DNA of 19,980 bases, from contig JBBKWJ010000208.1 in NCBI GenBank assembly GCA_037968895.1, positions 1 to 19,980 of the forward strand. Reading direction: 5' to 3'. The stretch comes from Acidimicrobiales bacterium (lineage in GTDB: Bacteria; Actinomycetota; Acidimicrobiia; Acidimicrobiales; SZUA-35). The notes beneath the pieces were generated by a model. The model was not told the DNA's origin, ran no database searches, and saw only the letters and a list, made by a program, of their open reading frames with translations. The position numbers and the translations under genes were made by a program. Shown here piece after piece: positions 5,572 to 17,200 of the stretch. How positions within the stretch are numbered: position 1 is the first letter of the stretch; every line of letters begins with the position of its first letter.

Positions 5572-6714
5572 ATGACGACTGATCTCGCCACTGACACTTC
5601 CCGCCGAACAATGAGTGCGTGGATTCGTGGACCGCTCGTTGTCGGTCTCATCTACCTTTTTCTCATCGGTGTTTCGTCGTTGGAATCCGGAATCAAGGTG
5701 ATGGGCGAGGACACGCAGGAACGTCTCTTCTCGAGCGTGTCCAATCCGCTAGCTGGCCTTTTCGTAGGCATTCTTGGCACGGTGCTGGTCCAATCTTCCT
5801 CGGCAAGCACCTCGGTGATCGTCGGTCTCGTTGCCTCGAAGGCCCTTGGTGTCGAAGACGCAGTACCTATGGTTATGGGTGCAAACATCGGTACCACGGT
5901 GACAAACACGCTCGTCTCGATGGGTCACGTTCGGCAGTCGAACGAGTTTAAGAGAGCGCTGGCCGCGGCAACAGTACATGACTTCTTTAACGTGCTCGCC
6001 GTTGCAATTCTGCTTCCATTCGAACTGCTCACTGGCCGGCTGACCTGGGTCGCGGAATCAATCAGCGGGCGACTGGTCGGCTCAGCTGGCAGCGACTGGA
6101 AGAGCCCGGTGAAGGCGTGGGTTAAGGAACCAGTCTCGCTGATTAAGGATTTCTGGTCTGCGGTCGGCTTAGAGACAACCTGGCTCGGAATTTCATTGCT
6201 GGTCACCGGTCTTGTCGTCATTCTGCTTGCGCTCACGATGATCACCAAGAACATGCGAGTCCTTGTCGCCGACCGTGTAGAGCGTTCGTTGAATGCGGTG
6301 CTCGGACGGGGAGGCGGCCTCATAGCTATGGCACTTGGTCTCGTCATTACGGTCGCGGTCCAGTCATCGAGCATCACAACATCAATTCTCATTCCACTGA
6401 CCGCCGCTGGTGTATTGTCGCTGCGCAATGCATACCCGGTTACCTTGGGCGCCAACGTCGGAACCACGATCACTGCGTTACTCGCAGCCATGGCGGCCAG
6501 CGTTCCAGAGGCGCTCACCGTTGGCCTCGTACATACAACCTTTAACGTTGCTGGCATCGTGTTGCTCTACGGATTCAAACCAGCTCGTGACATCCCGATT
6601 AGGCTCGCTGAGGGTCTCGCCGAGATGGCAGTTGATCAGAAACTGTGGGCCCTCGCATATGTAGTTGGTCTATTTGTGGTCGTGCCAGTCGTCGGTCTCG
6701 CAATTCTCCGCTGA
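5572..6714 (+). CDS. Na+/phosphate cotransporter family protein (Na_Pi_cotrans, NptA/YjbB-like transmembrane module)
   Basis: The 380-aa polytopic protein carries the duplicated family motifs LVQSSSASTSVIVGLV...GANIGTTVTN and AVQSSSITTSILIPL...GANVGTTITA. Confidence 0.8.
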   Translation: MTTDLATDTSRRTMSAWIRGPLVVGLIYLFLIGVSSLESGIKVMGEDTQERLFSSVSNPLAGLFVGILGTVLVQSSSASTSVIVGLVASKALGVEDAVPMVMGANIGTTVTNTLVSMGHVRQSNEFKRALAAATVHDFFNVLAVAILLPFELLTGRLTWVAESISGRLVGSAGSDWKSPVKAWVKEPVSLIKDFWSAVGLETTWLGISLLVTGLVVILLALTMITKNMRVLVADRVERSLNAVLGRGGGLIAMALGLVITVAVQSSSITTSILIPLTAAGVLSLRNAYPVTLGANVGTTITALLAAMAASVPEALTVGLVHTTFNVAGIVLLYGFKPARDIPIRLAEGLAEMAVDQKLWALAYVVGLFVVVPVVGLAILR

Positions 6715-6727
6715 GAGAGGAAATCAA

Positions 6728-7405
6728 GTGGTATTTGAATTTTTTCGCCGTGGTGGTGAACCAGGCATCGATCACATCCAGAAGCGCATGATCGAAATGC
6801 TCGCCGATTGCCGGCATTCGTTCGACCTTGCTACTGACGCGTTGCTGACTGGTATCGATCCAGAGAGTGTCGCCGATGAAATCCGAAGCACTGATCACCG
6901 GATCAACGCGGCCGAGAAGGAGCTGCGATCTGAGCTCGTCGTGCACGTCAGCGTGCAGGGCGCCGGCGACATCGGCACGGTACTCGGCTACACCTTGCTC
7001 ATCAAGAAGCTCGAGCGAATCGGTGACCAGGCGAAGAACATCCTCGACTTGGCCGAAGAGGGTGTTTCATTTTCGAATGCCGCCGATCTCAACGAACTAA
7101 TGAAGATCAGGCGGCAGGTCTCCGAAATGTTTGGACAGGTTGGGCTTCTGCTCGTTGCGCCGGTGACGTCCGATGTCGAAGACAACTGGAAACACGTTGA
7201 CGAGCTTCGTCAGTTCTGCGAAGGCAAGGTCCGGGAGTATCTGCATTCTGAACGGCCCGGCCACGAAGTGGTTCCGCGAGCAATTTACTACCGGTATCTG
7301 AAGCGCATCGTTGCCAATCTCGGTGGTGTTGTCACTACATCGACCGAACCGCTGACAAACCAGGACTATCGTGACGACGGCGAAACCGACATCGACGACG
7401 ACTGA
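6728..7405 (+). CDS. PhoU-domain protein (phosphate-transport regulator-like), probably partnered with the upstream Na/Pi cotransporter
   Basis: The PhoU-like motif LERIGDQAKNI is present with a two-helical-repeat organisation. I place the start at GTG 6728 (VVFEFFRR...) behind an AGAGAGG RBS 7 nt upstream, rather than the ATG at 6665, which overlaps the transporter gene by 50 nt. Confidence 0.65.
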   Translation: MVFEFFRRGGEPGIDHIQKRMIEMLADCRHSFDLATDALLTGIDPESVADEIRSTDHRINAAEKELRSELVVHVSVQGAGDIGTVLGYTLLIKKLERIGDQAKNILDLAEEGVSFSNAADLNELMKIRRQVSEMFGQVGLLLVAPVTSDVEDNWKHVDELRQFCEGKVREYLHSERPGHEVVPRAIYYRYLKRIVANLGGVVTTSTEPLTNQDYRDDGETDIDDD

Positions 7406-7451
7406 TCTTGATTACGCGTGACCTCGCCTCGTCTGGCAGAATAGCTCTGGT

Positions 7452-7871
7452 ATGAGCGACCCCAAGCCAGCCCAGTTTCGGAAAACTAAGACAGGTAAGT
7501 GGGCCGTCATGGCGCCCGTCGAATCACTTGAGAAGGCACTCAAGGAAGATGGCGGCGTGGTGCAGGTCTTGAAGAAGTCGGGCGACTATTCGACCTTCAC
7601 CGTTGGCTCGCTCGGTAAGGCATTTGACGTCGACGGCGAACAGATGTGTTACGGATACAGCCCTGAAGACTCCGAAGACTCAGACGGTACTCGTGCTACG
7701 TCGTCACGATCAGCATCGCAACAGTCGAGCACAGGCGAATGGCCGGCCGCCTCAGACGCAGATCCGAGTCAACCGGGCACTGTGAATCTCGACGCTCCAC
7801 CCGCCGATTCGTCCGAACCAATGCCTGAATTTCAGGGCGGTTCAGACGACGAATGGGACGGCGGCTTCTAG
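7452..7871 (+). CDS. Hypothetical protein with a basic N-terminal domain and a long acidic Ser/Asp/Glu-rich tail ending DDEWDGGF
   Basis: The 139-aa ORF shows coding-like codon usage and no recognisable family. It sits 120 nt upstream of the NfeD-like gene on the same strand. Confidence 0.4.
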   Translation: MSDPKPAQFRKTKTGKWAVMAPVESLEKALKEDGGVVQVLKKSGDYSTFTVGSLGKAFDVDGEQMCYGYSPEDSEDSDGTRATSSRSASQQSSTGEWPAASDADPSQPGTVNLDAPPADSSEPMPEFQGGSDDEWDGGF

Positions 7872-7993
7872 CCGTCGGACATTTCTCGGGAACTCTCCGA
7901 CTCGTCTCGTCGTTTGCGCTACATCAGGTTGACGGCAATACTTCGGTGACTGGCGGCACATCTTGGCCACTGCACCAGATTTGGGGGAGTCGG

Positions 7994-8611
7994 GTGGAGC
8001 GTTTCATCGAAATAGCATTTGGCATGCCAACGGCGCTCTTTACGACGCTGTTGCTGATCTCGCTCGGCTACTGGATTGTCAGCCTTGTAAGCGGGATTGA
8101 CAGCGGAGCGGAGGTTGGCCTCGATGCCGATGTTGATACTGACTTCGAGGCGTCTGCTGGCTTACTGGCGGCACTTGGGCTTCACCGCATCCCATTCAGT
8201 CTGGTGATCACGGTGGTGTCGCTCACGGCGTGGCTTATCTCTCTCATTCTTGTGTTTCTCGTGACCGATGGAGGATCGACCTCACTATGGTTGGCTCTAC
8301 CAATCATCTTCGGTTCCCTGATCGGTGGACTGCTCGTAGCAAGTCCGGTCGCTCGCCTCGCGGCGCCCTTGTTCGCAGTTCACCCCGCGATGCATAGAGA
8401 AGATCTCATTGGTCGGGAATGCGTTGTCAAGACCGGTCATGTCGATGAAAGTTTCGGGCAAGCCGAGGTGGTCGACGAAGAATACGGAACTCATATTGTT
8501 CAGGTGCGGTGCCCGGCTCCCAATGAGCTGCGCTCAGGCACGAAGGCACATCTCATCGATGTCAATAACGACGGTGAGTTCCAGATCGCAGCAGGACTGT
8601 TGGACTTCTAG
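7994..8611 (+). CDS. YqiJ/NfeD-like inner-membrane protein (DUF1449-like) with a C-terminal OB-fold
   Basis: The protein has two or three TM helices followed by a soluble beta-rich C-terminus, LIGRECVVKTGHVDESFGQAEVVDEEYGTHIVQVRCPAPNELRSGTKAHLIDV, which is comparable to the E. coli YqiJ C-terminus. It lies immediately upstream of the flotillin gene, as in yqiJK and nfeD-floT pairs. The start is chosen as GTG 7994 with a GGGGGAG RBS (ATG 8024 is the alternative). The track's 7853 start overlaps the previous gene. Confidence 0.65.
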   Translation: MERFIEIAFGMPTALFTTLLLISLGYWIVSLVSGIDSGAEVGLDADVDTDFEASAGLLAALGLHRIPFSLVITVVSLTAWLISLILVFLVTDGGSTSLWLALPIIFGSLIGGLLVASPVARLAAPLFAVHPAMHREDLIGRECVVKTGHVDESFGQAEVVDEEYGTHIVQVRCPAPNELRSGTKAHLIDVNNDGEFQIAAGLLDF

Positions 8612-8672
8612 GACTGCACAGAGCTAGTCCTGCACACACACTCGAAGTAAGAAAAGAAGGATAAGGGGTCAC

Positions 8673-10589
8673 ATGGATACGGTAATAATCGGCATTTTGG
8701 TCGTCGTAGCGGTGGTGTTGCTTGTATTACTCGCAGTCGCAGCGATGATCTCGACGTTGTACAAGAAGGTCCCTCAAGGTAAGGCGTTGGTCGTTTCGAC
8801 GATGAAGACAGTTGCCGTCACCTTCACCGGCCGAGTTGTCCTTCCGGTGGTGCACAAGGCCGAGGTGATGGACATCTCAGTGAAGACGATCGAGATCGAT
8901 CGTCGAGGCGCTGAAGGGCTTATCTGCCAGGACAACATTAGGGCTGACATCAAGGTCAACTTCTTTGTCAGGGTGAACAAGGCCGAAGAGGATGTCATCA
9001 AGGTTGCTCAAGCCATTGGTTGCAACCGGGCTAGCGACATTGTGACTCTTGAGGAGCTATTTGCTGCCAAGTTCTCCGAAGCGTTGAAGACCGTTGGCAA
9101 GCAGATGGAGTTCGTCTCGCTCTATACCGAGCGGGCTTTATTCCGTGATCGGATCATCGCCGTCATTGGCACCGATCTCAACGGGTACGCGCTCGAAGAC
9201 GTCGCTATCGACTATCTCGAGCAGACTCCCCTCAATCAGCTCGATTCGAACAACATTCTTGACGCCCAAGGCATTCGTAAGATCACTGAGCTCACTGCGA
9301 TAGAGCGCGTAGCCACCAATAACGCGTCGAACGACGAGTCGAAGCAGATAACGGCCAAGAACGTGGAGACACGGGAAGCAGTGTTGGAGCTTGAGCGTCA
9401 GCAGGCCGATGCCGAAGCGCGTCAACGTCGCGAGGTCGAGACCGTCAAGGCTCGTGAGCAAGCCACAATTGACACCATCGTCGCCGAAGAAACACTTCGA
9501 GCTGAGATGGCTAATCTCGAAGTTCAACAGAAGATTGGGATCGAGCAAGAGAACCTACAGCGCGAGGTCGAAGTCGCAGGGAAGAACCGCGAGCGAGTGC
9601 TGGCGGTTGAAACCGAGCGCGTGCAGAAGGCACAAGAGCTTGAAATGATGTCTCGCCGAGTCGAGACACTGTCGGCCGAGAAGTCGTTGGAAGAAGAGAA
9701 GGGCACGATTGCCGAGATTCGGCGGAGCCGGGTCGCCACAGAGAAGACCGTCGCTGAGCAAGAAGAGTCAATCGAGACGCTTCGTGTTGTCGAGCAAGCG
9801 AATCGGGAGCGGCAGGCAATCGTGGTCATGGCCGAGGGTGAGGCTCAGAGCCTCCTCGTCAAAGACATTAAGAAGGCTGAGGCCGCGGAAGAAGCGTCCC
9901 GCCATGAAGCGACGCGCCAGCTCACTCTGGCCAAGGCCGAAATGGAGGCCGCCGATCTTTCAGCACAAGCGAAGATTCGACTAGCTGAAGGTGTGAAAGC
10001 CGAATCAGCTGCCATCGGACTCGGCGAGGTCGAGGTTGACCGGGCAAAGGCAAACGCAATTCGGGAAACCGGAATCGCACACGTCGACGTCGAGCGAGCA
10101 CAGGCCGAGATTGTTCGCGAGCTCGGAACCGCCGAAGCCTCCGCCATAGAGGCCAAGTTGAAGGGCGAGGCCTCTGGTCTGACCGAAAAGGCTGAAGCCA
10201 TGAAGAAGCTCGAAGGCGTTGGACAAGAGCACGAAGAGTTCGTACGCGAGCTTGAAGCAGATACCAAGGTGCGACTTGCCGAGGTCGAGGCTCGAGTCGG
10301 TGTCGCAACGGCTCAGGCCGACGCGATGAAGACCGGTCTCGAGAATGCCAACATCGATATTGTCGGCGGCTCGGACATTTTCATTGACCGACTCGTCGGC
10401 TCTATTTCGGCTGGCAAATCAGTCGACGCATTCGTTGACTCATCGGAGGTCGCGGCCACCGCGGCAGCCCCGTACCTAGAAGGCAAGGAAGACCTCATCG
10501 CCAAGATTGGTGAGGCAGTATCAGGTATGGGTGCTGACGGCATCCGTGACCTCACTGTGGCTGATCTGCTTCGCAAACTCGGCAAGTGA
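8673..10589 (+). CDS. Flotillin-like SPFH/band-7 protein (YqiK/FloT family) with a long E/A/R-rich coiled-coil C-terminal region
   Basis: An N-terminal TM helix (IIGILVVVAVVLLVLLAVAAMI) is followed by LYKKVPQGKALVV and an SPFH domain, then roughly 350 aa of EA-rich heptad repeats. An AAGGATAAGGGG RBS precedes the ATG. The architecture matches E. coli YqiK and B. subtilis FloT. Confidence 0.85.
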   Translation: MDTVIIGILVVVAVVLLVLLAVAAMISTLYKKVPQGKALVVSTMKTVAVTFTGRVVLPVVHKAEVMDISVKTIEIDRRGAEGLICQDNIRADIKVNFFVRVNKAEEDVIKVAQAIGCNRASDIVTLEELFAAKFSEALKTVGKQMEFVSLYTERALFRDRIIAVIGTDLNGYALEDVAIDYLEQTPLNQLDSNNILDAQGIRKITELTAIERVATNNASNDESKQITAKNVETREAVLELERQQADAEARQRREVETVKAREQATIDTIVAEETLRAEMANLEVQQKIGIEQENLQREVEVAGKNRERVLAVETERVQKAQELEMMSRRVETLSAEKSLEEEKGTIAEIRRSRVATEKTVAEQEESIETLRVVEQANRERQAIVVMAEGEAQSLLVKDIKKAEAAEEASRHEATRQLTLAKAEMEAADLSAQAKIRLAEGVKAESAAIGLGEVEVDRAKANAIRETGIAHVDVERAQAEIVRELGTAEASAIEAKLKGEASGLTEKAEAMKKLEGVGQEHEEFVRELEADTKVRLAEVEARVGVATAQADAMKTGLENANIDIVGGSDIFIDRLVGSISAGKSVDAFVDSSEVAATAAAPYLEGKEDLIAKIGEAVSGMGADGIRDLTVADLLRKLGK

Positions 10590-13500
10590 GCACTTATGAC
10601 CTCCTTCGTAGTCGGCTTGAGGCGAGCGCAACTGCGCTCGCCGAGCGCGCTGGTTCGCTCAACAAGCGTCGAACCGAGGTCTTTGGGTCGTCCGTATTCG
10701 CGTTGAGGGGAACCGAGCGGCTCCGTAGCGAAAACGCAAACGTGCCCCGCGATGTTTCAAGTATCGACGGCCAACTCATTGTTGCGTACAACCCGGCACC
10801 GGGAGCGCTGACGTCAGTCAAGCCAAACGACATTTTTGCTATCCACAATCTGGAGCGTTCGTCGTCAGGCGAGATGGTACTTAACGCGAACCCGAACGGG
10901 CTCGATGCGTCTGTCCTTGACGACGCCCAGTTTCGACGCGACTTCGACGAGCTTCATACGTACTACAAAGACGCTCGAGTCCAGCAGTTGTATCGTGTTG
11001 CGAACCGCATGCTCGCTGTATTCCGCATTGGGACAGCGCGTTCTGACATCCGAGTTCTGAGATGGTCAGTCAATCCTGACGGGTCACTCCAGTACCTCGA
11101 CGCTCGCGGCGAACGTGATCACAAAGCGCCTGCTCGCCACGATGTCGACTGGACGTTGGTGACTCGGGAAGACCATGTCGGCGAGTCACACGTCTCGCTA
11201 TCGGACCGGGTACTGATTAACCCTCTCAACGGCACCATTGAGCTGATGATGCCCGACCGTTCGCTTCTGCTGAGCGATCCGGTGAACCATGCCGACCAGT
11301 CACTTGCGGACTGCACAATCCGGTGGGCAACGTGTGGCGACCTCATCGTCATCGACCTGTTGCCGTACGGCGAGCTCGACCATCGCTACTACGTCGCGAA
11401 TTTGCTCGATCACACTGCCACCAGAATTGATGAACTTGGTCAGGCGTTTCGCCAGTTGCCCGAGGGACAGGGTTTCATCCATCCGAGAGGTGTCTTTCTC
11501 AAGAATGGACAACACCAGTCGTTCGATCTCGAGGCCGACCAGATGGAACTACTTGAGGTTGTGCGATCACCCAATGGCGAGGACATGTTGTATGTCTTCT
11601 ACGAGCAGGAATCAGGACGGTCGATCCTCCTGCCATACAACGTGGTTCGCCAGGAGGTCACGACTCCACTTCGGTGCGATGGGCATTCGATCTTTGCTGA
11701 CGGAACCATGGTGATGTTCCGCGAAGAACATGAGCCCACCCGAATTCACCCAATGCAGATTTGGGAGACCCCATTCGCCAGCGACGAATGGTTCGCCGCT
11801 CAACCTCGCGAGATCTCCGACCTTGACCGAATAGGAAATGCTGCGCTCGTGCGAGGCATTGCTGACGCGCTTGCGCTTTCGAGACTCATTGGCAGCATTG
11901 AACCCTCGTCGGAGCTCTACGGTGACCTCCTCGGCTCCGTGGGGCGCTTCCTCGACCAGCATCATTGGGCAGAGTCAGTCGATGTTGGCAACCTCGCTGA
12001 ACCGGCACGAGAGATGCAGGTTGTTGCTGGACAGGTCATTGACGAGTTCGAACGAGTGCTCGAGGTTAAAGCCGTGGCAACGGCGACGCTCGACGAAGCG
12101 CGTCAGACGTTCAATCAGCATCACGAAGAAGAACGAATTTCGCCGCCGGCGACCACAGAAGCGTTCATCAATCTGCTAGGGCTTTATCGCCACGATCTGG
12201 GCCATCTTCACTCGATCCGAGACCAGCCTGAAGTCGACGTGGCCGCTGTCGACGAACTAGTAACCGAAGCAACCGCAGCCCACGCCGCAACGGCTCAGAA
12301 GGCGGCCGGACACCTCGCAGGCGACGGAGCATTTGCTCCTTACCACGAACGATTAGCGCGGATCACAGGTTCAATCGACGAAGCTGGGTCGTCAATCGCA
12401 GCGCGTGAGCTCCTTGAGGAAGTCGACGGGGTTGCAACCTCAATGGACGTGGTTTCTTCCACCGTTGGCGACCTTGTTGTTGACGACCCCCGAGTGCGAA
12501 CTTCAGTTCTCGAACAGGTGTCGCAGGTTCTCGCTTCCTTAAATCAGGTGCGAGCTCGTGTCGAGACGAAACAAGAATCGCTGATTGAGGCAGAGACCGG
12601 AGCGTCGTTCGCAACCGAGCTTGGGCTCTTTGGTCAGTCGATTGCATCGGCACTGAGCAGAGTCGATGAGCCGAAGGGGTGCGACGAAGCGTTGGGGCGG
12701 CTTCTTCTGCAGCTCGAACAGCTTGAGACTGCTGGTCCGCGCAGCGACGAGCAGATCCGTGAGCTTGAACTTCGTCGCGAGCAGGTAACCGAAACGGTCT
12801 CGGCGCGGCGCCAGAAACTCGTCGATGAACGGGAGGCCAAAGCACAACGGCTCGTTGGAGCCGCCGAGCGAACACTCGAACGGATCACAGAACGTGCGGC
12901 GGCACTTCCGTCCGTGGACGATGTGAACGGGTTCTTTGCCGCTGATCCCATGACTGCTCGCGTCCGCGACCTGACAGACCAGCTTCGCGAGCTCGGCGAG
13001 GCCGTAAAGGCGGACGAACTCAAGAGCCAGTTGGGGGCGGCTCGCGACAATGCGGCGCGCCTCATTCTCGATCGAGCCGAACTCTTCGACGGCGAGCTCA
13101 TCAAACTTGGTCGCCATCGTTTTAGCGTCGACAAACAGCGCCGCGAACTGACGATCGTGCCCCGAGACGGACGTTTACAGGCTGTCTTGACCGGAACAGA
13201 CTTCGCACTCGACCTCCACGATGAGCGCCTAGAAGCGCACCGTGACCTGTGGAGCGAACCGCTGGTGTCGGAGTCGCGTGACCTCTACCGGGGTGCATAC
13301 CTCGCGGCCGGCATCCTTGACGACGCCTTGAGTTCTGGACAAGTGCCAATGTGGGAAGACGTCGTTCGCGAAGCAGTCGACTCTCGTCTCGACGAGGGCT
13401 ACGACCGCGGTGTGCATGACCACGATGCAGTCCTCCTCGTATCGGCGTGGGCAGCAGGCGCAGCGACTGCTGGCCCTCTCCTGTATCCAAGCCGTGTTCG

Positions 13501-15262
13501 GGCCGAGGCGCTGTGGCACTGGTTCGACGAACTGAGCGAGGAACAGCGGGTCGATTGGATCGGCCGTGGCAAGGCGGCAGCCGAGCTCGGACAAGCAGTT
13601 GAGCCCGTTCTCGGCAGCTACATGGCAGACGAACTCACCGCATCTGCGGGGTTCGCTCCGTCGATGTCTCACGAGACCGCGCGCCATGTGCGGCTGTTTT
13701 CCGGCGACCAGAAAGTGCAATCGGTGCTTACGTCGGCCAGCCAAAATCCACGAGCGTATCGAGAGGTACTTGAGCGGTACGTCGCCGCTTCGGCACCCTA
13801 CGACATCGCAGCCGAGATTGTCGTCACGCTCCTGTTCCCAGAGCCTGAGCGCCGTATTCGCACGATCGATCTCGACTGCACCGTCAGCGGTCTGCTAGGA
13901 CGTCACCCAACGATTCAGGATGGCACGCTCAGAGTGTCTCTCGACGAGCTGCTTGACCTGTCCCGCCACCAACGCAACGATGTTGCGCCCCGTCACCGGG
14001 CATTTGTGGCGGCTCGGCGTGAAATCGTCGACCAGCTCAAGGGAAACCTCCGCGTACATGACCTTGTGCCGCACGTGCCAGAAGGCTTTGTGCGAAACCG
14101 GCTTATCGACGAGGTGTATCTCCCGCTCATTGGCGGCAACCTGGCTCGCCAGATCGGCACTGTCGACGACACATCTGCTGCACGATCGGGCCTTCTGATG
14201 CTGCTGTCGCCTCCCGGTTACGGCAAGACAACACTCATTGAGTACGTGGCTGATCGCCTAGGTATGGCGCTAGTTAAGGTGTCCGGACCGGGGTTGGGAC
14301 ACGATGTCACATCGCTTGACCCGGCTCAGGCGGCGAGTAGCACGTCTCGTCGTGAGCTCGATCGAATCAACATGGCGTTTGCGATTGCGTCAAACGTGAT
14401 CCTCTACATCGACGACATTCAGCACACGAATCCCGAGTTTCTACAGCGCTTCATTTCACTCACTGATGCTCAACGAAGAGTCGAGGGGGTGCTTGAAGGC
14501 GAATCGCGCACGTTCGATCTTCGTGGAAAGCGCTTTGCCGTCGTCATGGCCGGCAATCCGTATACAGAGTCGGGGGAGCGGTTTCGTATTCCCGACATGC
14601 TGGCAAACCGTGCCGATACCTACAACCTGGGTGATGTGCTGGCAGACAGTGAGCGTGCCTTTGCGCTTAGCTACATCGAGAACTCTCTCACATCCAACCC
14701 GGCTGTGACCCGAATCGGGCGTGACCTCGATGCGTTCATGGCTGGCCTGGATGGTGGGTCGGTCGACGAAGCGGCGCTGACCCAGCGCTATTCTGCGGCC
14801 GAACAGAACGATATTGTTCGCCTGCTCCATCACCTCAGAACTGTCCAGCAGACGGTTCTGACAGTGAATAGGCAGTACATCGCGTCTGCGGCGACAGGGG
14901 ATGCATATCGCACCGAACCGCCGTTTCTGCTGCAAGGTTCATACCGAAATATGACGAGATTGGCAGCACAGTTGCTGCCAGCGATGACAGAGGATGAAGT
15001 TGAGGAGATTCTCGACGCTCACTACACGGCTGAGTCTCAGTCATTGACTGGAGCGGCCGAGGCGAATCTTCTGAAGCTGGCGCAACTTCGAGGCAAGATG
15101 ACGCCAACCCAAGAGACTCGCTGGAACGAGATCATCACAGTCTTCCAGCGAAAGCAGCGCCTTGGTGGTGGCGACGACGACCCTGTTGCGCGCGTCGTCG
15201 CCGCGATAGATCAGGTCTCCGATGCCCTGAGCGGTCGAGTCAACCACTCTCCGTACGATTAG
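10586..15262 (+). CDS. Giant (1558 aa) flotillin-associated protein with a C-terminal AAA_5 (MoxR/McrB-like) ATPase domain; function unknown
   Basis: The GTG start overlaps the flotillin TGA stop (aaGTGAgc). A Walker A motif LLMLLSPPGYGKTTL lies at roughly nt 14210-14240. A Walker B motif VILYIDDIQH lies at roughly nt 14395-14425. Sensor-1 is AVVMAGNPY, and a MoxR-like motif is FRIPDMLANRADTY. The central region, roughly aa 600-900, is long, helical and coiled-coil-like. The first ~400 aa match no family I recognise. Confidence 0.8.
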   Translation: MSTYDLLRSRLEASATALAERAGSLNKRRTEVFGSSVFALRGTERLRSENANVPRDVSSIDGQLIVAYNPAPGALTSVKPNDIFAIHNLERSSSGEMVLNANPNGLDASVLDDAQFRRDFDELHTYYKDARVQQLYRVANRMLAVFRIGTARSDIRVLRWSVNPDGSLQYLDARGERDHKAPARHDVDWTLVTREDHVGESHVSLSDRVLINPLNGTIELMMPDRSLLLSDPVNHADQSLADCTIRWATCGDLIVIDLLPYGELDHRYYVANLLDHTATRIDELGQAFRQLPEGQGFIHPRGVFLKNGQHQSFDLEADQMELLEVVRSPNGEDMLYVFYEQESGRSILLPYNVVRQEVTTPLRCDGHSIFADGTMVMFREEHEPTRIHPMQIWETPFASDEWFAAQPREISDLDRIGNAALVRGIADALALSRLIGSIEPSSELYGDLLGSVGRFLDQHHWAESVDVGNLAEPAREMQVVAGQVIDEFERVLEVKAVATATLDEARQTFNQHHEEERISPPATTEAFINLLGLYRHDLGHLHSIRDQPEVDVAAVDELVTEATAAHAATAQKAAGHLAGDGAFAPYHERLARITGSIDEAGSSIAARELLEEVDGVATSMDVVSSTVGDLVVDDPRVRTSVLEQVSQVLASLNQVRARVETKQESLIEAETGASFATELGLFGQSIASALSRVDEPKGCDEALGRLLLQLEQLETAGPRSDEQIRELELRREQVTETVSARRQKLVDEREAKAQRLVGAAERTLERITERAAALPSVDDVNGFFAADPMTARVRDLTDQLRELGEAVKADELKSQLGAARDNAARLILDRAELFDGELIKLGRHRFSVDKQRRELTIVPRDGRLQAVLTGTDFALDLHDERLEAHRDLWSEPLVSESRDLYRGAYLAAGILDDALSSGQVPMWEDVVREAVDSRLDEGYDRGVHDHDAVLLVSAWAAGAATAGPLLYPSRVRAEALWHWFDELSEEQRVDWIGRGKAAAELGQAVEPVLGSYMADELTASAGFAPSMSHETARHVRLFSGDQKVQSVLTSASQNPRAYREVLERYVAASAPYDIAAEIVVTLLFPEPERRIRTIDLDCTVSGLLGRHPTIQDGTLRVSLDELLDLSRHQRNDVAPRHRAFVAARREIVDQLKGNLRVHDLVPHVPEGFVRNRLIDEVYLPLIGGNLARQIGTVDDTSAARSGLLMLLSPPGYGKTTLIEYVADRLGMALVKVSGPGLGHDVTSLDPAQAASSTSRRELDRINMAFAIASNVILYIDDIQHTNPEFLQRFISLTDAQRRVEGVLEGESRTFDLRGKRFAVVMAGNPYTESGERFRIPDMLANRADTYNLGDVLADSERAFALSYIENSLTSNPAVTRIGRDLDAFMAGLDGGSVDEAALTQRYSAAEQNDIVRLLHHLRTVQQTVLTVNRQYIASAATGDAYRTEPPFLLQGSYRNMTRLAAQLLPAMTEDEVEEILDAHYTAESQSLTGAAEANLLKLAQLRGKMTPTQETRWNEIITVFQRKQRLGGGDDDPVARVVAAIDQVSDALSGRVNHSPYD

Positions 15263-15304
15263 CCACGGCGCGGGACGCCGCAGTGCACTGTCTACAGTCA
15301 CGGC

Positions 15305-16372
15305 ATGAATTCCCCCTACTCTCGAATACCTTCGTCCGCTGCTCTTCTCGTTCTACCCCTGGTCGCGGCAGCGTGTGCCAGTAATGTGGATGCTGCGGCC
15401 GTGTCGACTCCAGTAACGACCGAGGTTGTCGAGACGGCCACTACTGCGGTGCAAACTACCGAGACGCCGAAAACGGTCGCTCCAGTCACAGAGTGCGGGA
15501 CGCCGGGCGTCGCCGAATACACGCTCGAAGAATCTGGAACGAGTTACGCCGTCCGTGTGTTTTTGCCCCGAGCGATCGACGCTGAGGCACCCGCTCCCGT
15601 CGTGCTGAATTGGCATGGTCTTGGTTCGGAGGGCTCAGTCCAAGCAACCTTCACTGCGTATGAGATGCTCGCCGAGTCCAAAGGTTTCATTGTGGCGAGC
15701 CCGACAGGAGTCCCCGCCCCTGGTGATGATCGAAACTCATGGGAGTTGATTCAGCTCGACACACCAGACCGCGACGATGTTGCCTTCGCGTCAGCCCTAA
15801 TTGACGACATCACTGAGCGCTTCTGCGGTGATGTAACCCGCGTCTATTCCACCGGAATGTCAAACGGCGGACTGTTTACGAGCCGCCTGATCTGTGACCT
15901 TGCCGACAAGATTGCAGCCGCGTCGTCGGTCGCCGGACTCACCCATCCCGACGAATGCGAACCATCTCGAGCGGTGCCGTTCATCGCATTTCATGGCACC
16001 GACGATGGCGTCGTGCCGTACGACGGAACCAGAGGCTCAAGCAGCCTCCTACCTTCCGGAGCCCCGCCAGAACTCGTCGAGTTCTTCTCACAGGTCATGC
16101 CCGATGAGTTTGCCGAGTTCGCGGCTGACGCAGGTTGCTCGGCGGAGCCGGTCGTGACTGAAATTTCTGGAGAACTCATTTCGTACGATTATCAGGGTTG
16201 TGCGAACGACACTCCGATGACGTTCTACGAATTTATTGGTGGCGGGCACACATGGCCCGGCTCACCCTTCGCTGCGATCCTCGAAGCGAGCGGACTTGGC
16301 TATACGACGCTCGATATCGACGCCACGGCCGCCTCGTGGGAGTTCTTCCAGCAGCACACGCTCAACGATTAG
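15305..16372 (+). CDS. Secreted esterase lipoprotein, PHB-depolymerase family (LpqC-like, COG3509)
   Basis: A signal peptide with a lipobox-like ...LVAAAC is followed by a Thr/Val-rich linker. The Ser nucleophile is in GMSNGG (GxSxG). The motifs FHGTDDGVVPY and GGGHTWPG are typical of LpqC-type esterases. Confidence 0.7.
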   Translation: MNSPYSRIPSSAALLVLPLVAAACASNVDAAAVSTPVTTEVVETATTAVQTTETPKTVAPVTECGTPGVAEYTLEESGTSYAVRVFLPRAIDAEAPAPVVLNWHGLGSEGSVQATFTAYEMLAESKGFIVASPTGVPAPGDDRNSWELIQLDTPDRDDVAFASALIDDITERFCGDVTRVYSTGMSNGGLFTSRLICDLADKIAAASSVAGLTHPDECEPSRAVPFIAFHGTDDGVVPYDGTRGSSSLLPSGAPPELVEFFSQVMPDEFAEFAADAGCSAEPVVTEISGELISYDYQGCANDTPMTFYEFIGGGHTWPGSPFAAILEASGLGYTTLDIDATAASWEFFQQHTLND

Positions 16373-17200
16373 CCTTGGCGAGCAGCCTGTTGGCGACGAA
16401 GCTCGCAGCGACCGAAGCGACGCGTACATGCGAGCGAGGGGAGTGTCGTCGGAGACGCCGACTGCGCCGTACACCTGAATTGCCTGATCAACGACAGTAG
16501 TAGCCGTCTGCATCACGAGAACTTTAATGGCCGACATGTCGGGCGCCGCTGCCTTGTCGCCCTCGACGTCCATCTACCACGCAGTGTGCAACGTCATGAG
16601 TCTGGCCGAATCAATGTTGATTCGGGCGTTTGCGATCCATTCTTGGATGTTCGCTCGAGACGAAACGAGTCCGCCGAACGTGGAGCGACTGTCTGCCCGT
16701 TCGCACAGGAGCGAGAGGGCCTGTTCCGCGACGCCGATGGTCCTCATGCAGTGCTGCACTCTCGCTGGTTGCCTAGGAGTGCGTCGGCTGGCAAACGTAC
16801 GTTGTTGAGTGCCAATTCGGTGTGTCCGTCGGCGTCCAGGTAACCAAACTTCGGCAGATTGCGAACCACGGTGAGGCCTGGAGTATCTCTGGGCACGACA
16901 AACACGGAATGTCGGCGGTGTCGTGACGCGGCGGGATCCGACCATCAAGTTGGGGCGTCAGCCACTGCTCCTTCTGGGCTGCGCTCCCATACAGGATGAG
17001 AGCATCACCGTTGATACTTGATGGCGCGTCGCAGTTGGTTGCCTCTTGGGCCAGCCGACTTGTGCCGAGGATCTCAGCGAGCGGGGCGTAGTCGAGGCTC
17101 GTCAGTCCAGGACCGTAGTTCGGAGGTCTGACGCCAGCGTGAGGGAACGATTCGAATGCGTGAAATCCATCAGTGGTCCTCCGTGGCGTGCCGTCAATCT
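16340..17200 (-). pseudogene. Acyl-CoA dehydrogenase pseudogene (internal deletion, frameshift and in-frame TAG)
   Basis: The minus-strand translation gives ACAD blocks in three different frames: RPPNYGPGLTSLDYAPLAEILGTSRLAQEATNCDAPSSINGDALILYGSAAQKEQWLTPQLDGRI, then about 90 aa missing (no RSCFAMTEP block), then SVFVVPRDTPGLTVVRNLPKFGYLDADGHTELALNNVRLPADALLGNQRE, then a frame change to ...RVQHCMRTIGVAEQALSLLCERADSRSTFGGLVSSRANIQEWIANARINIDSARLMTLHTAW, then an in-frame TAG at about 16574, then MDVEGDKAAAPDMSAIKVLVMQTATTVVDQAIQVYGAVGVSDDTPLARMY. The N-terminus is truncated by a stop, and both ends are approximate. Confidence 0.7.

Follow-up and report, generated by a model that had tools for sequence, protein, structure and literature searches.

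A widely conserved three-gene unit encodes a YqiJ-like membrane protein, a flotillin and a large AAA+ ATPase

The window, by which we mean the whole 19,980-nucleotide stretch of Acidimicrobiales DNA that was analyzed (contig JBBKWJ010000208.1), contains one copy of a trio of co-oriented, tightly spaced or overlapping genes that is inherited together across phyla. On the + strand, the trio encodes a YqiJ/NfeD-like (DUF1449-type) membrane protein of 205 aa (positions 7994–8611), a YqiK-type flotillin (SPFH/Band-7) of 638 aa (8673–10589) and a soluble AAA+ protein of the DUF3686/DUF7902 family of 1,558 aa (10586–15262), hereafter called the ATPase. This three-gene unit is real and very widely conserved, and it is not a new discovery. 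The reading that we favor, with a probability of roughly 0.55, is that the YqiJ-like protein and the flotillin form a scaffold carrying a docked, ATP-driven remodeler with a role in membrane stress.

The initial annotation described an apparent operon of five genes, and open reading frames do run on the same strand from 7452, 7994, 8673, 10586 and 15305 with short gaps or an overlap between them. The gaps measure 122 nt (7871 to 7994), 61 nt (8611 to 8673) and 42 nt (15262 to 15305). Between the flotillin and ATPase genes the spacing is −4 nt: the junction reads CTC GGC AAG TGA, and the GTG start codon at 10586 overlaps the TGA stop codon to give GTGA on the + strand (10586–10589). No other start codon stands between the preceding in-frame stop and this GTG, so the gene cannot begin further 5′, and the GTG precedes the codon for Y4, a residue shared without exception by 61 homologs. 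The identical 4-nt overlap appears in a gene call made independently for a close relative, and the same −4 arrangement is the earliest possible in-frame ATPase start in about 17 other loci. The overlap between the ATPase start and the flotillin stop is thus confirmed as first described and recurs in many other loci, and it suggests translational coupling of the flotillin and ATPase genes. The stoichiometric co-production that was initially proposed would be a possible consequence. The reading frame of the YqiJ-like protein is open from 7853, and its GTG start at 7994 is preceded by GGGGGAG, a Shine–Dalgarno-like sequence, and agrees both with an independent 205-aa gene call in the close relative and with the start of the family alignment.

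Consensus scans of the + strand found no promoter-like or terminator-like site between 10500 and 10600, the interval in which such a pair had been named as a sign of fortuitous adjacency, and no terminator-like site between any of the five genes from 7452 to 16372. Across 7000–17200, counts of promoter-like and terminator-like sites were not above those in shuffled sequence. Codon comparison with a relative at 81% DNA identity indicates purifying selection on all five genes, with residue-keeping and residue-changing differences numbering 40 and 29 in the 139-aa gene at 7452, 92 and 33 in the YqiJ-like gene, 235 and 8 in the flotillin gene, 682 and 152 in the ATPase gene and 125 and 58 in the esterase gene at 15305. 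The flotillin is 98.7% identical between relatives at this level of DNA identity, which points to very strong purifying selection and not to diversification.

To measure linkage, we examined the best 80 of at least 600 matched stretches in GTDB species genomes, at least 595 of which were confirmed relatives. Of the 76 testable loci among these 80, all but one (75) have a co-oriented flotillin gene immediately 5′ of the ATPase homolog; the set spans Actinomycetota, Acidimicrobiales, Myxococcota, Acidobacteriota, Planctomycetota and Gammaproteobacteria. Five of five cases from further afield (pQBR103, Hymenobacter, Deinococcus, Vibrio and Proteus) show the same order, which brings the total, among loci whose upstream DNA is long enough, to 80 of 81 in at least seven phyla. 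In the sole exception (L058), the flotillin gene still shares the strand of the ATPase gene, and three genes for surface proteins separate the two. Such linkage puts the adjacency far beyond chance, and homologs of the large protein are almost always flotillin-linked, whereas homologs never linked to SPFH genes had been proposed as the finding that would count against the arrangement. Pairwise distance matrices over 61 three-gene loci also correlate, at r = 0.92 for ATPase and flotillin and r = 0.86 for ATPase and YqiJ-like protein. On the strength of the linkage and of this correlation, we reject fortuitous adjacency. The co-inheritance of flotillin and ATPase reflects shared function or selection and is not proof of direct contact.

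Clustering of open reading frames over the 80 loci and the window showed that only the YqiJ-like, flotillin and ATPase families recur across all lineages, with no fourth conserved gene around the unit. The additional high-ranking clusters all consisted of reading frames antisense to the flotillin and ATPase genes, which arise artefactually from the high GC content. A YqiJ-like homolog upstream of the flotillin was matched by tblastn in about 65 of the first 80 loci and was placed there by clustering in 64 loci including the window (63 others). The unit is present in Proteus mirabilis, Pseudomonas fluorescens SBW25 (on pQBR103), Streptomyces, Corallococcus and Vibrio campbellii. The ATPase family almost never occurs without a flotillin gene, whereas the flotillin/YqiJ pair does occur without the ATPase, for example in Escherichia coli.

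The two genes that flank the trio, both on the + strand, encode a 139-aa hypothetical protein (7452–7871) and a 355-aa esterase of the PHB-depolymerase family with a signal/lipoprotein-like N terminus (15305–16372). Were the whole run from 7452 to 16372 one functional operon, both would be working parts of it, and the shared strand, the gaps of 122, 61, −4 and 42 nt without an intervening terminator-like site and the identical five-gene layout in the close relative are what such an operon would look like. Nevertheless, neither gene adjoins the trio in the 80 other loci, which include two other Acidimicrobiales genomes, and the genes in these flanking positions vary by lineage. The 139-aa protein, whose C-terminal half is acidic and of low complexity, has 199 homologs, none with a Pfam domain; its family is confined to Acidimicrobiia-like metagenome-assembled genomes, the few homologs with a named source coming almost all from Acidimicrobiales/Actinomycetota assemblies, and it has no match in the 80 trio loci. 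The esterase matches NCBIfam NF050058 (E = 3.6e-35, under the curated cut-off) and TIGR01840 (E = 5.9e-11), and among the 80 loci it has a single weak match (in L003), away from the operon. We therefore consider a five-gene functional operon unlikely and treat both genes, contrary to their initial inclusion, as lineage-specific neighbors outside the conserved unit. The esterase gene, 42 nt past the ATPase stop codon, may be co-transcribed with the ATPase gene.

Within the conserved trio, neither the flotillin nor the YqiJ-like protein of the window matches any Pfam or NCBIfam model, even at E ≤ 10, so we established their membership through YqiK and YqiJ of E. coli MG1655. BLASTP aligns the flotillin with YqiK over 463 aa at 29% identity (E = 4e-32); the alignment runs from residue 11 and takes in the SPFH region, and the coiled-coil region of the flotillin is aligned with YqiK residues 200–439. 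In the flotillin, an N-terminal membrane anchor (approximately residues 1–34, the single hydrophobic segment by hydropathy) precedes the SPFH region, which is followed by a long coiled coil rich in Ala and Glu and by a C-terminal tail that is conserved. Streptomyces proteins that are named flotillin or SPFH and bear PF01145 share 59% identity with it, and 7 of 26 aligned family members match Band_7 (PF01145) themselves, the best at E = 5.2e-11. Searches of the PDB with the single sequence and with the family profile gave no significant match. Across phyla, the ATPase-linked flotillins are 42–71% identical to the window flotillin, as against only 29% for YqiK, and by sequence they look like a distinct subfamily.

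The YqiJ-like protein has three to four N-terminal hydrophobic segments by hydropathy, followed by an acidic linker and a C-terminal soluble β domain. Pairwise BLASTP alone found nothing between it and E. coli YqiJ, whereas a 25-sequence family profile aligned with YqiJ in hhalign at 93.9% probability (E = 1.5e-7, 126 aligned columns). Sequence and profile searches of the PDB returned nothing significant for this protein; the profile aligned with the expected region of the YuaF structure 2k14 at a non-significant E = 0.61. Together, the YqiK and YqiJ alignments bear out the proposal that the two upstream genes form a real YqiJ/YqiK-type pair.

The ATPase is a 170-kDa protein of 1,558 residues with a single AAA+ module and no strong hydrophobic or membrane segment by hydropathy. 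The megadalton scale that was initially suggested would presuppose a hexamer. Pfam matches to PF12458 (DUF3686; E = 2.8e-141, full length, 2–448 of 448), PF25472 (DUF7902; E = 3.5e-23), PF00004 (E = 2.6e-8) and PF07728 (AAA_5; E = 3.3e-6) support its original description as an AAA+ protein. Two AlphaFold2 models (mean pLDDT of 87.2 and 89.5) predict an N-terminal helix (residues 3–33) and then an all-β domain within DUF3686 (approximately residues 39–394; 10700–11767, + strand). Structure prediction of this N-terminal region, which had been suggested as a follow-up, thus yielded a β-propeller: Foldseek matched the domain to WD40-type and other propellers in the PDB at a probability of ~1.0, including the DCAF1 WDR domain, Ski8, PON1, YncE and prolyl oligopeptidase propellers. 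The propeller family is small, with only 542 representatives among 1.84 billion proteins; in the best 150 matches the domain is almost always N-terminal, in full-length proteins of 1,550–1,900 aa. A long helical/coiled-coil region follows (approximately residues 418–833; 11837–13084, + strand), which includes DUF7902 (residues 582–664). In both models, a small five-stranded β domain (~838–877) and an all-helical domain (~902–1083) come next (13097–13834, + strand); no family assignment was obtained for either.

The AAA+ module, with a C-terminal helical lid and bundle, occupies approximately residues 1172–1558 (14099–15259, + strand), and structure comparison places its fold closest to MoxR/dynein/midasin modules. 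Its motifs comprise Walker A (SPPGYGKT, 1208–1215), Walker B (ILYIDD, with D1276 and D1277), sensor-1 N1324 (MAGNPYTE) and an arginine, R1342 (ANRAD). Walker B thus ends in Asp-Asp instead of the canonical Asp-Glu, so ATP hydrolysis may be slow or regulatory; D1276 and D1277 are invariant in sets of both 20 and 61 homologs. We found no canonical aromatic pore-loop motif in LVKVSGPGLGHDVTSLDP, which, together with the MoxR-like fold, favors short-range, chaperone-like remodeling over processive unfolding.

The ATPase is 40–60% identical to family members that carry the database name 'DNA repair ATPase'. If that name were right, the adjacency to a flotillin gene would be functionally meaningless. 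Pfam describes DUF3686 as an 'ATPase involved in DNA repair', NCBI uses the same name, and there are weak matches to the RuvB P loop; these, however, span only about 35 residues around the P loop and reach 17 bits against a cut-off of 299. A domain scan found no DNA-binding, nuclease or helicase domain, and the fold matches are to chaperone ATPases of the MoxR/dynein type. The near-obligate link to genes for two membrane proteins, in some loci with PspA, has no repair rationale, and we found no literature that ties the family to DNA repair. A repair function is accordingly very improbable, and the widely propagated name has no visible basis.

A role in anti-phage defense or biological conflict, in which the flotillin/YqiJ pair would sense membrane perturbation upon infection and the ATPase would act as effector or switch, also deserves consideration. 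Large NTPases with a propeller and a coiled coil are known from conflict systems, the distribution of the unit across phyla is patchy and includes megaplasmids, and PADLOC models give weak matches to the ATPase (LmuB, E = 5.5e-5; IetA, E = 0.004). The LmuB match, however, covers the coiled-coil region and the IetA match the P loop, both far under family level; the NCBIfam IteA model, for which the cut-off is 510 bits, reaches 15.6 bits, and PADLOC models have no match to the other four proteins encoded by genes in the run. The domain scan turned up no effector domain, whether nuclease, protease, TIR or another kind, and the neighboring genes are housekeeping, ion-transport or Psp genes in lineage-stable synteny and not defense islands. 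The near-identity of the flotillin between relatives argues against diversification as well. The PADLOC and gene-context checks led us to reject defense as the main reading, and we regard it as quite unlikely.

We compared the trio with characterized systems. E. coli YqiJ–YqiK and Bacillus subtilis YuaF–FloT are homologous two-gene cores with the same gene order and a flotillin anchored by an N-terminal helix; in E. coli, however, yqiK is followed not by an ATPase gene but by sibD/ibsD. In HflK/C–FtsH and in prohibitin with the m-AAA protease, an SPFH-family scaffold works with a membrane AAA+ machine. At the level of the SPFH superfamily, an AAA+ partner therefore has conceptual precedents. 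The systems differ in that FtsH is a membrane-anchored classical AAA protease whose SPFH partner is HflK/C, whereas the ATPase of the window is soluble, of MoxR/dynein type and without a protease domain, and its partner is a flotillin. Among compact structures, the AAA+ module is matched most closely by the MoxR-family chaperones CbbQ, NorQ and RavA, in keeping with the AAA_5 match. Relative to that family, the ATPase has about 1,170 additional N-terminal residues (propeller, coiled coil and helical domains) and the Asp-Asp Walker B. Characterized MoxR-type ATPases are usually paired with a VWA-domain partner, but we found no conserved VWA gene near the unit in the 80 loci and the window and no VWA match in the ATPase itself.

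In some lineages the unit is joined by PspA. A PspA/IM30 gene and a YjfI or Tir-chaperone-like gene lie directly upstream in seven gammaproteobacterial loci, in pQBR103 and in Hymenobacter. A PspA gene within 10 kb is lacking in the window and in most other loci, and the connection to the Psp response is therefore lineage-restricted. In the window, neither tblastn nor HMM searches matched PspA, and the CesT/Tir–PspA dyad is absent upstream of the unit, where a Na/Pi cotransporter gene, a PhoU-like gene and the 139-aa gene are found.

The arrangement had initially been taken as undescribed. It has been described by comparative genomics: in their sections on these operons, Ravi et al. (mSystems 2024; PMC11237479) report operons that run from YqiJ/YuaF through a Band-7/flotillin protein to a protein with β-propeller, coiled coil and AAA+ module, often with PspA, and they note that 'abbreviated' forms without PspA are widespread. 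The window shares the gene order and domain architecture of this operon class and, lacking PspA and CesT/Tir genes, matches the abbreviated form. The same sections propose a membrane-dynamics reading of the architecture; they devote a few sentences and no experiment to these operons, and they contain no quantification of the linkage, no start/stop overlap and no assignment of the AAA+ clade. Literature searches for DUF3686, or for the ATPase with flotillin, MoxR or YqiK, returned no study of this protein, and we found no experimental study of any member of the unit.

Under the scaffold-and-remodeler reading, the flotillin, held by its single N-terminal helix, and the polytopic YqiJ-like protein would oligomerize into a scaffold at the cytoplasmic side of the membrane, a step proposed by analogy with solved SPFH/NfeD complexes. 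The ATPase would dock onto this scaffold through its propeller, its coiled coil or both, and would use the energy of ATP to build up, remodel or take apart the scaffold or the proteins within it. PspA polymers could be a further target in lineages whose operon includes PspA/IM30. The physiological role would most likely be membrane maintenance or repair under envelope stress, a setting to which the PspA genes upstream of the unit in some lineages point.

A more specific and more tentative proposal is that the ATPase is a dedicated assembly/disassembly factor of flotillin cages and, where PspA is in the operon, of PspA/ESCRT-III-like polymers, so that it would correspond in function to Vps4 while using a motor of the MoxR/dynein type. 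Vps4 acts with ESCRT-III, of the PspA/IM30 superfamily, and the possible functional analogy is that of an ATPase turning over a membrane-bound polymer; PspA genes join the operon of the unit in some lineages. If this proposal is true, the ATPase would be the first energy-consuming partner of bacterial flotillins and would fill a gap noted in a 2025 review, according to which bacteria seem to lack a Vps4-like regulator.

Because this type of operon is already in the literature, the value of the finding is that of a well-documented, quantified experimental lead and not that of a discovery. Work on bacterial flotillins such as YqiK and FloT over 15 years has brought no clear molecular activity to light, and E. 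coli yqiK mutants show little phenotype. An ATPase family that almost never occurs without a flotillin gene offers a concrete biochemical handle on them: a predicted enzyme whose activity could be measured and whose motifs could be mutated, and for which a probable substrate can be named.

ORF scanning of the window and a codon comparison with a relative confirmed the five same-strand genes that the initial annotation had described as an apparent operon. These are a 139-aa ORF (7452–7871, +), a YqiJ-like gene of 205 aa (7994–8611, +), a flotillin gene of 638 aa (8673–10589, +), a GTG-started gene for a 1,558-aa AAA+ ATPase (10586–15262, +) and an esterase gene of 355 aa (15305–16372, +). The YqiJ-like ORF itself spans 7853–8611; we took GTG 7994 as the start because a GGGGGAG run sits before it, the alignment of 25 family homologues begins at its position and the counterpart in a close relative, called independently, is 205 aa long. 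At the junction of the flotillin and ATPase genes (CTC GGC AAG TGA), the stop codon is overlapped by the GTG at 10586, as first proposed (GTGA). This GTG is the earliest start codon past the preceding in-frame stop, and it precedes Tyr4, a residue invariant across 61 homologues. Consensus scans for a promoter/terminator pair at 10500–10600 found neither a promoter-like nor a terminator-like site on the + strand, and counts of such sites over 7000–17200 were not above those in shuffled sequence.

All five genes are real and under purifying selection. Compared with one relative of 81% DNA identity across the five-gene stretch, residue-keeping codon differences far exceed residue-changing ones in each gene: 235 versus 8 in the flotillin gene, 682 versus 152 in the ATPase gene, 92 versus 33 in the YqiJ-like gene, 40 versus 29 in the 139-aa gene and 125 versus 58 in the esterase gene. 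Antisense ORFs also lie inside the flotillin and ATPase genes (8774–9001 and 14456–14935, both −); such long ORFs cluster over dozens of loci and reach about 770 aa elsewhere. We rejected them as genes: high GC content together with conservation of the coding strand produces them, and they would mislead a simple conservation screen.

Scanning an ATPase homologue alignment against one genome per GTDB species matched at least 600 stretches, with 595 confirmed relatives. The best 80 of at least 595 relatives, each with 10-kb flanks, came from Actinomycetota (Streptomyces, Nonomuraea, Nocardiopsis, Actinoplanes and others) and Acidimicrobiales, Gammaproteobacteria (Pseudomonas, Pseudoalteromonas, Limnobaculum, Stenotrophomonas and others), Myxococcota, Acidobacteriota, Planctomycetota and one MAG labelled Clostridia. 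Four loci with less than 400 nt of upstream DNA were left out; in 75 of the 76 testable loci, tblastn placed a same-strand flotillin homologue (42–71% identity) directly 5′ of the ATPase gene, and most of these loci carry a YqiJ-like gene 5′ of the flotillin gene. In the sole exception (L058, 3548–9911), the flotillin gene lies on the same strand 6.4 kb upstream, separated by three inserted same-strand genes for surface or secreted proteins (OmpA plus thrombospondin-3 (TSP3) repeats, DUF11 and laminin-G-like). For five more distant homologues from a plasmid collection (34–40% identity; Pseudomonas fluorescens pQBR103, a Hymenobacter plasmid (Bacteroidota), Deinococcus grandis pDEGR-1, Vibrio campbellii and Proteus mirabilis), the flotillin gene is again the immediate 5′ neighbour, giving an overall linkage to an SPFH gene of 80 of 81 testable loci. 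Fortuitous adjacency is effectively excluded. The named best hits point to an Acidimicrobiia (Actinomycetota) genome as the most probable source of the window.

In about 17 other loci, the earliest usable in-frame ATPase start again produces the −4 GTGA overlap; gaps in the remaining loci are mostly below 250 nt, with uncertain starts. All-against-all ORF clustering across loci recovered only three families common to all lineages, the remaining high-ranking clusters being antisense ORFs within the trio genes. Pairwise distance matrices from 61 loci correlate strongly (r = 0.92 for ATPase versus flotillin, r = 0.86 for ATPase versus YqiJ-like protein), and the trio was therefore inherited or transferred as a block. 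Escherichia coli carries yqiJ–yqiK without an ATPase gene, so it is the ATPase that depends on the flotillin pair, not the reverse. No VWA partner gene is conserved near the trio in the best 80 loci or the window. The trio is conserved, co-inherited and often translationally overlapped.

The same-strand run could also be read as a five-gene operon acting as one functional unit. That is unlikely, given that the 139-aa and esterase genes are absent from all other trio loci searched (best 80 of at least 595 relatives). The 139-aa family (199 homologues, the few named ones almost all from Acidimicrobiia/Actinomycetota MAGs) does not accompany the flotillin trio elsewhere; the protein has a basic/structured N-terminal half, a Ser/Asp/Glu-rich acidic tail and no Pfam domain. 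Beyond the esterase gene, acyl-CoA dehydrogenase remnants in three different frames (16403–17132, −) span residues 63–128, 184–242 and 239–376 of an intact 403-aa gene at the same position in a close relative, and look like a decayed pseudogene. A long TTG-started ORF at 17046 overlaps them, so the pyridine-nucleotide-disulphide oxidoreductase (476 aa in the relative) probably starts later.

The proposed YqiJ/YqiK-type pairing held up. The flotillin alone has no Pfam, NCBIfam or PDB-sequence match; it aligns with E. coli YqiK from residue 11 (E = 4e-32, 29% identity across 463 residues), shares 59% identity with PF01145-carrying Streptomyces proteins named flotillin/SPFH, and 7 of its 26 aligned relatives match Band_7. 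It has a single N-terminal hydrophobic anchor, and the YqiJ-like protein has 3–4 hydrophobic segments. The 25-homologue YqiJ-like profile matched E. coli YqiJ (hhalign probability 93.9%, E = 1.5e-7); against the YuaF structure, the right region aligned without significance (E = 0.61).

The third protein is AAA+, as annotated, with Pfam AAA/AAA_5 matches, and is a full-length family member (DUF3686, E = 2.8e-141; DUF7902, E = 3.5e-23). Two AlphaFold2 models (residues 1–900, pLDDT 87.2; residues 701–1558, pLDDT 89.5) contain, from the N terminus, a helix, an all-beta domain, a small beta domain, a helical domain and one AAA+ module. Foldseek matches the all-beta domain (about residues 39–394) to beta-propellers with a probability of about 1.0, and the protein has no strong hydrophobic segment. 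The ATPase is a soluble protein that combines a propeller and coiled coils with a motor of the MoxR/dynein type. Its N-terminal domain belongs to a small family, with 542 representatives in a set of 1.84 billion proteins; the domain's N-terminal position is near-constant in the best 150 of 542 matches, and the full-length proteins among these 150 have 1,550–1,900 aa. Walker A (SPPGYGKT), sensor-1 Asn1324 and Arg1342 are invariant within the family. In all 61 aligned homologues, Walker B (residues 1276–1277; 14411–14416) reads Asp-Asp in place of the usual Asp-Glu, a substitution that could mean slow or regulated ATP hydrolysis. These analyses argue that the NCBI family name, "DNA repair ATPase", is unsupported, and a true DNA repair function is highly improbable.

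A PspA/IM30 gene lies directly 5′ of the YqiJ-like gene in seven gammaproteobacterial loci, pQBR103 and Hymenobacter, joined in most PspA-carrying loci by a YjfI/DUF2170 or Tir-chaperone-like gene. The P. fluorescens SBW25 megaplasmid pQBR103 has a full yjfIJKLMC-like set and a rhomboid protease in one array with the trio. This same-strand array (L082, 1–13178) runs through YjfI, PspA/IM30, rhomboid protease, DUF2491, DUF350, DUF1190 and glutathionylspermidine-synthase-like genes to the YqiJ-like, flotillin and ATPase genes, followed on the opposite strand by an MvaT/MvaU-type nucleoid protein gene. The window carries no PspA gene, and the 10-kb flanks of the actinobacterial, myxobacterial, acidobacterial and planctomycete loci likewise have none.

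Other neighbours are lineage-specific (ion-transport/regulator examples, L043:10497–12485, L080:6161–6643 and L037:5930–7147): a 662-aa TrkA_N protein 25 nt downstream of the trio and a divergently transcribed PucR-like regulator in a Streptomyces clade, and a small adjoining Ion_trans_2 channel in Myxococcota. The ion-transport neighbours may suggest some connection with ion homeostasis. Upstream of the trio in the window are a Na/Pi cotransporter gene and then a PhoU-domain gene (5572–7405, +); the listed PhoU ORF (6665, TTG) overlaps the transporter gene by 50 nt, and the relative's 225-aa call would place its start near 6728. A close relative (L087) carries a second, unrelated SPFH gene (1411–2586, −; Band_7_1/Band_7 plus GYF_2, 391 aa), located some 7 kb 5′ of its trio, where the window has a PEP-mutase/isocitrate-lyase-family gene (502–1395). 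A defence role, one of the functions initially suggested, is quite unlikely: neighbours in other lineages and the window resemble no defence island, and PADLOC matches were trivial only.

SPFH–AAA+ partnerships are established at superfamily level (HflK/C–FtsH and prohibitin–m-AAA protease). We propose, with a probability of about 0.55 for the whole scheme, that the flotillin and YqiJ-like protein would form a membrane scaffold resembling the solved SPFH/NfeD cages, on which the ATPase would dock via its propeller or coiled coil. ATP would then power the assembly, the release or the short-range remodelling of a target that may be the scaffold, its clients or, in loci that carry it, PspA, in the service of membrane maintenance under stress. 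Chaperone-like remodelling is favoured over threading because the fold is MoxR-like and, on direct reading, the canonical aromatic pore-loop motif is absent from LVKVSGPGLGHDVTSLDP. A Vps4-like role for the ATPase, acting on flotillin/PspA assemblies, is a tentative and rather doubtful extension.

Ravi et al. (mSystems 2024; PMC11237479) report operons joining CesT/Tir–PspA with three further genes. Their supplementary table entry for Dokdonia donghaensis reads YqiJ-YuaF, Band-7+coiled-coil+flotillin, then beta-propeller+coiled-coil+AAA-ATPase, the same gene order and architecture as in the window. The view that the arrangement had not been described is therefore wrong; the initial annotation was right in its observation, and its interpretation is supported in part. 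In a 2025 review, the Band-7 partners of PspA still figure with undetermined roles, and bacteria are described as apparently lacking a Vps4-like ATPase; the literature searched yielded no experimental work on the trio's ATPase. Our analysis adds a quantified linkage, support for co-inheritance, a start/stop overlap that recurs across loci, the MoxR/dynein-type assignment with its invariant Asp-Asp Walker B, and the lack of a conserved VWA partner gene. The trio in the window represents, for Acidimicrobiia, the PspA-less form of an operon type already catalogued computationally.
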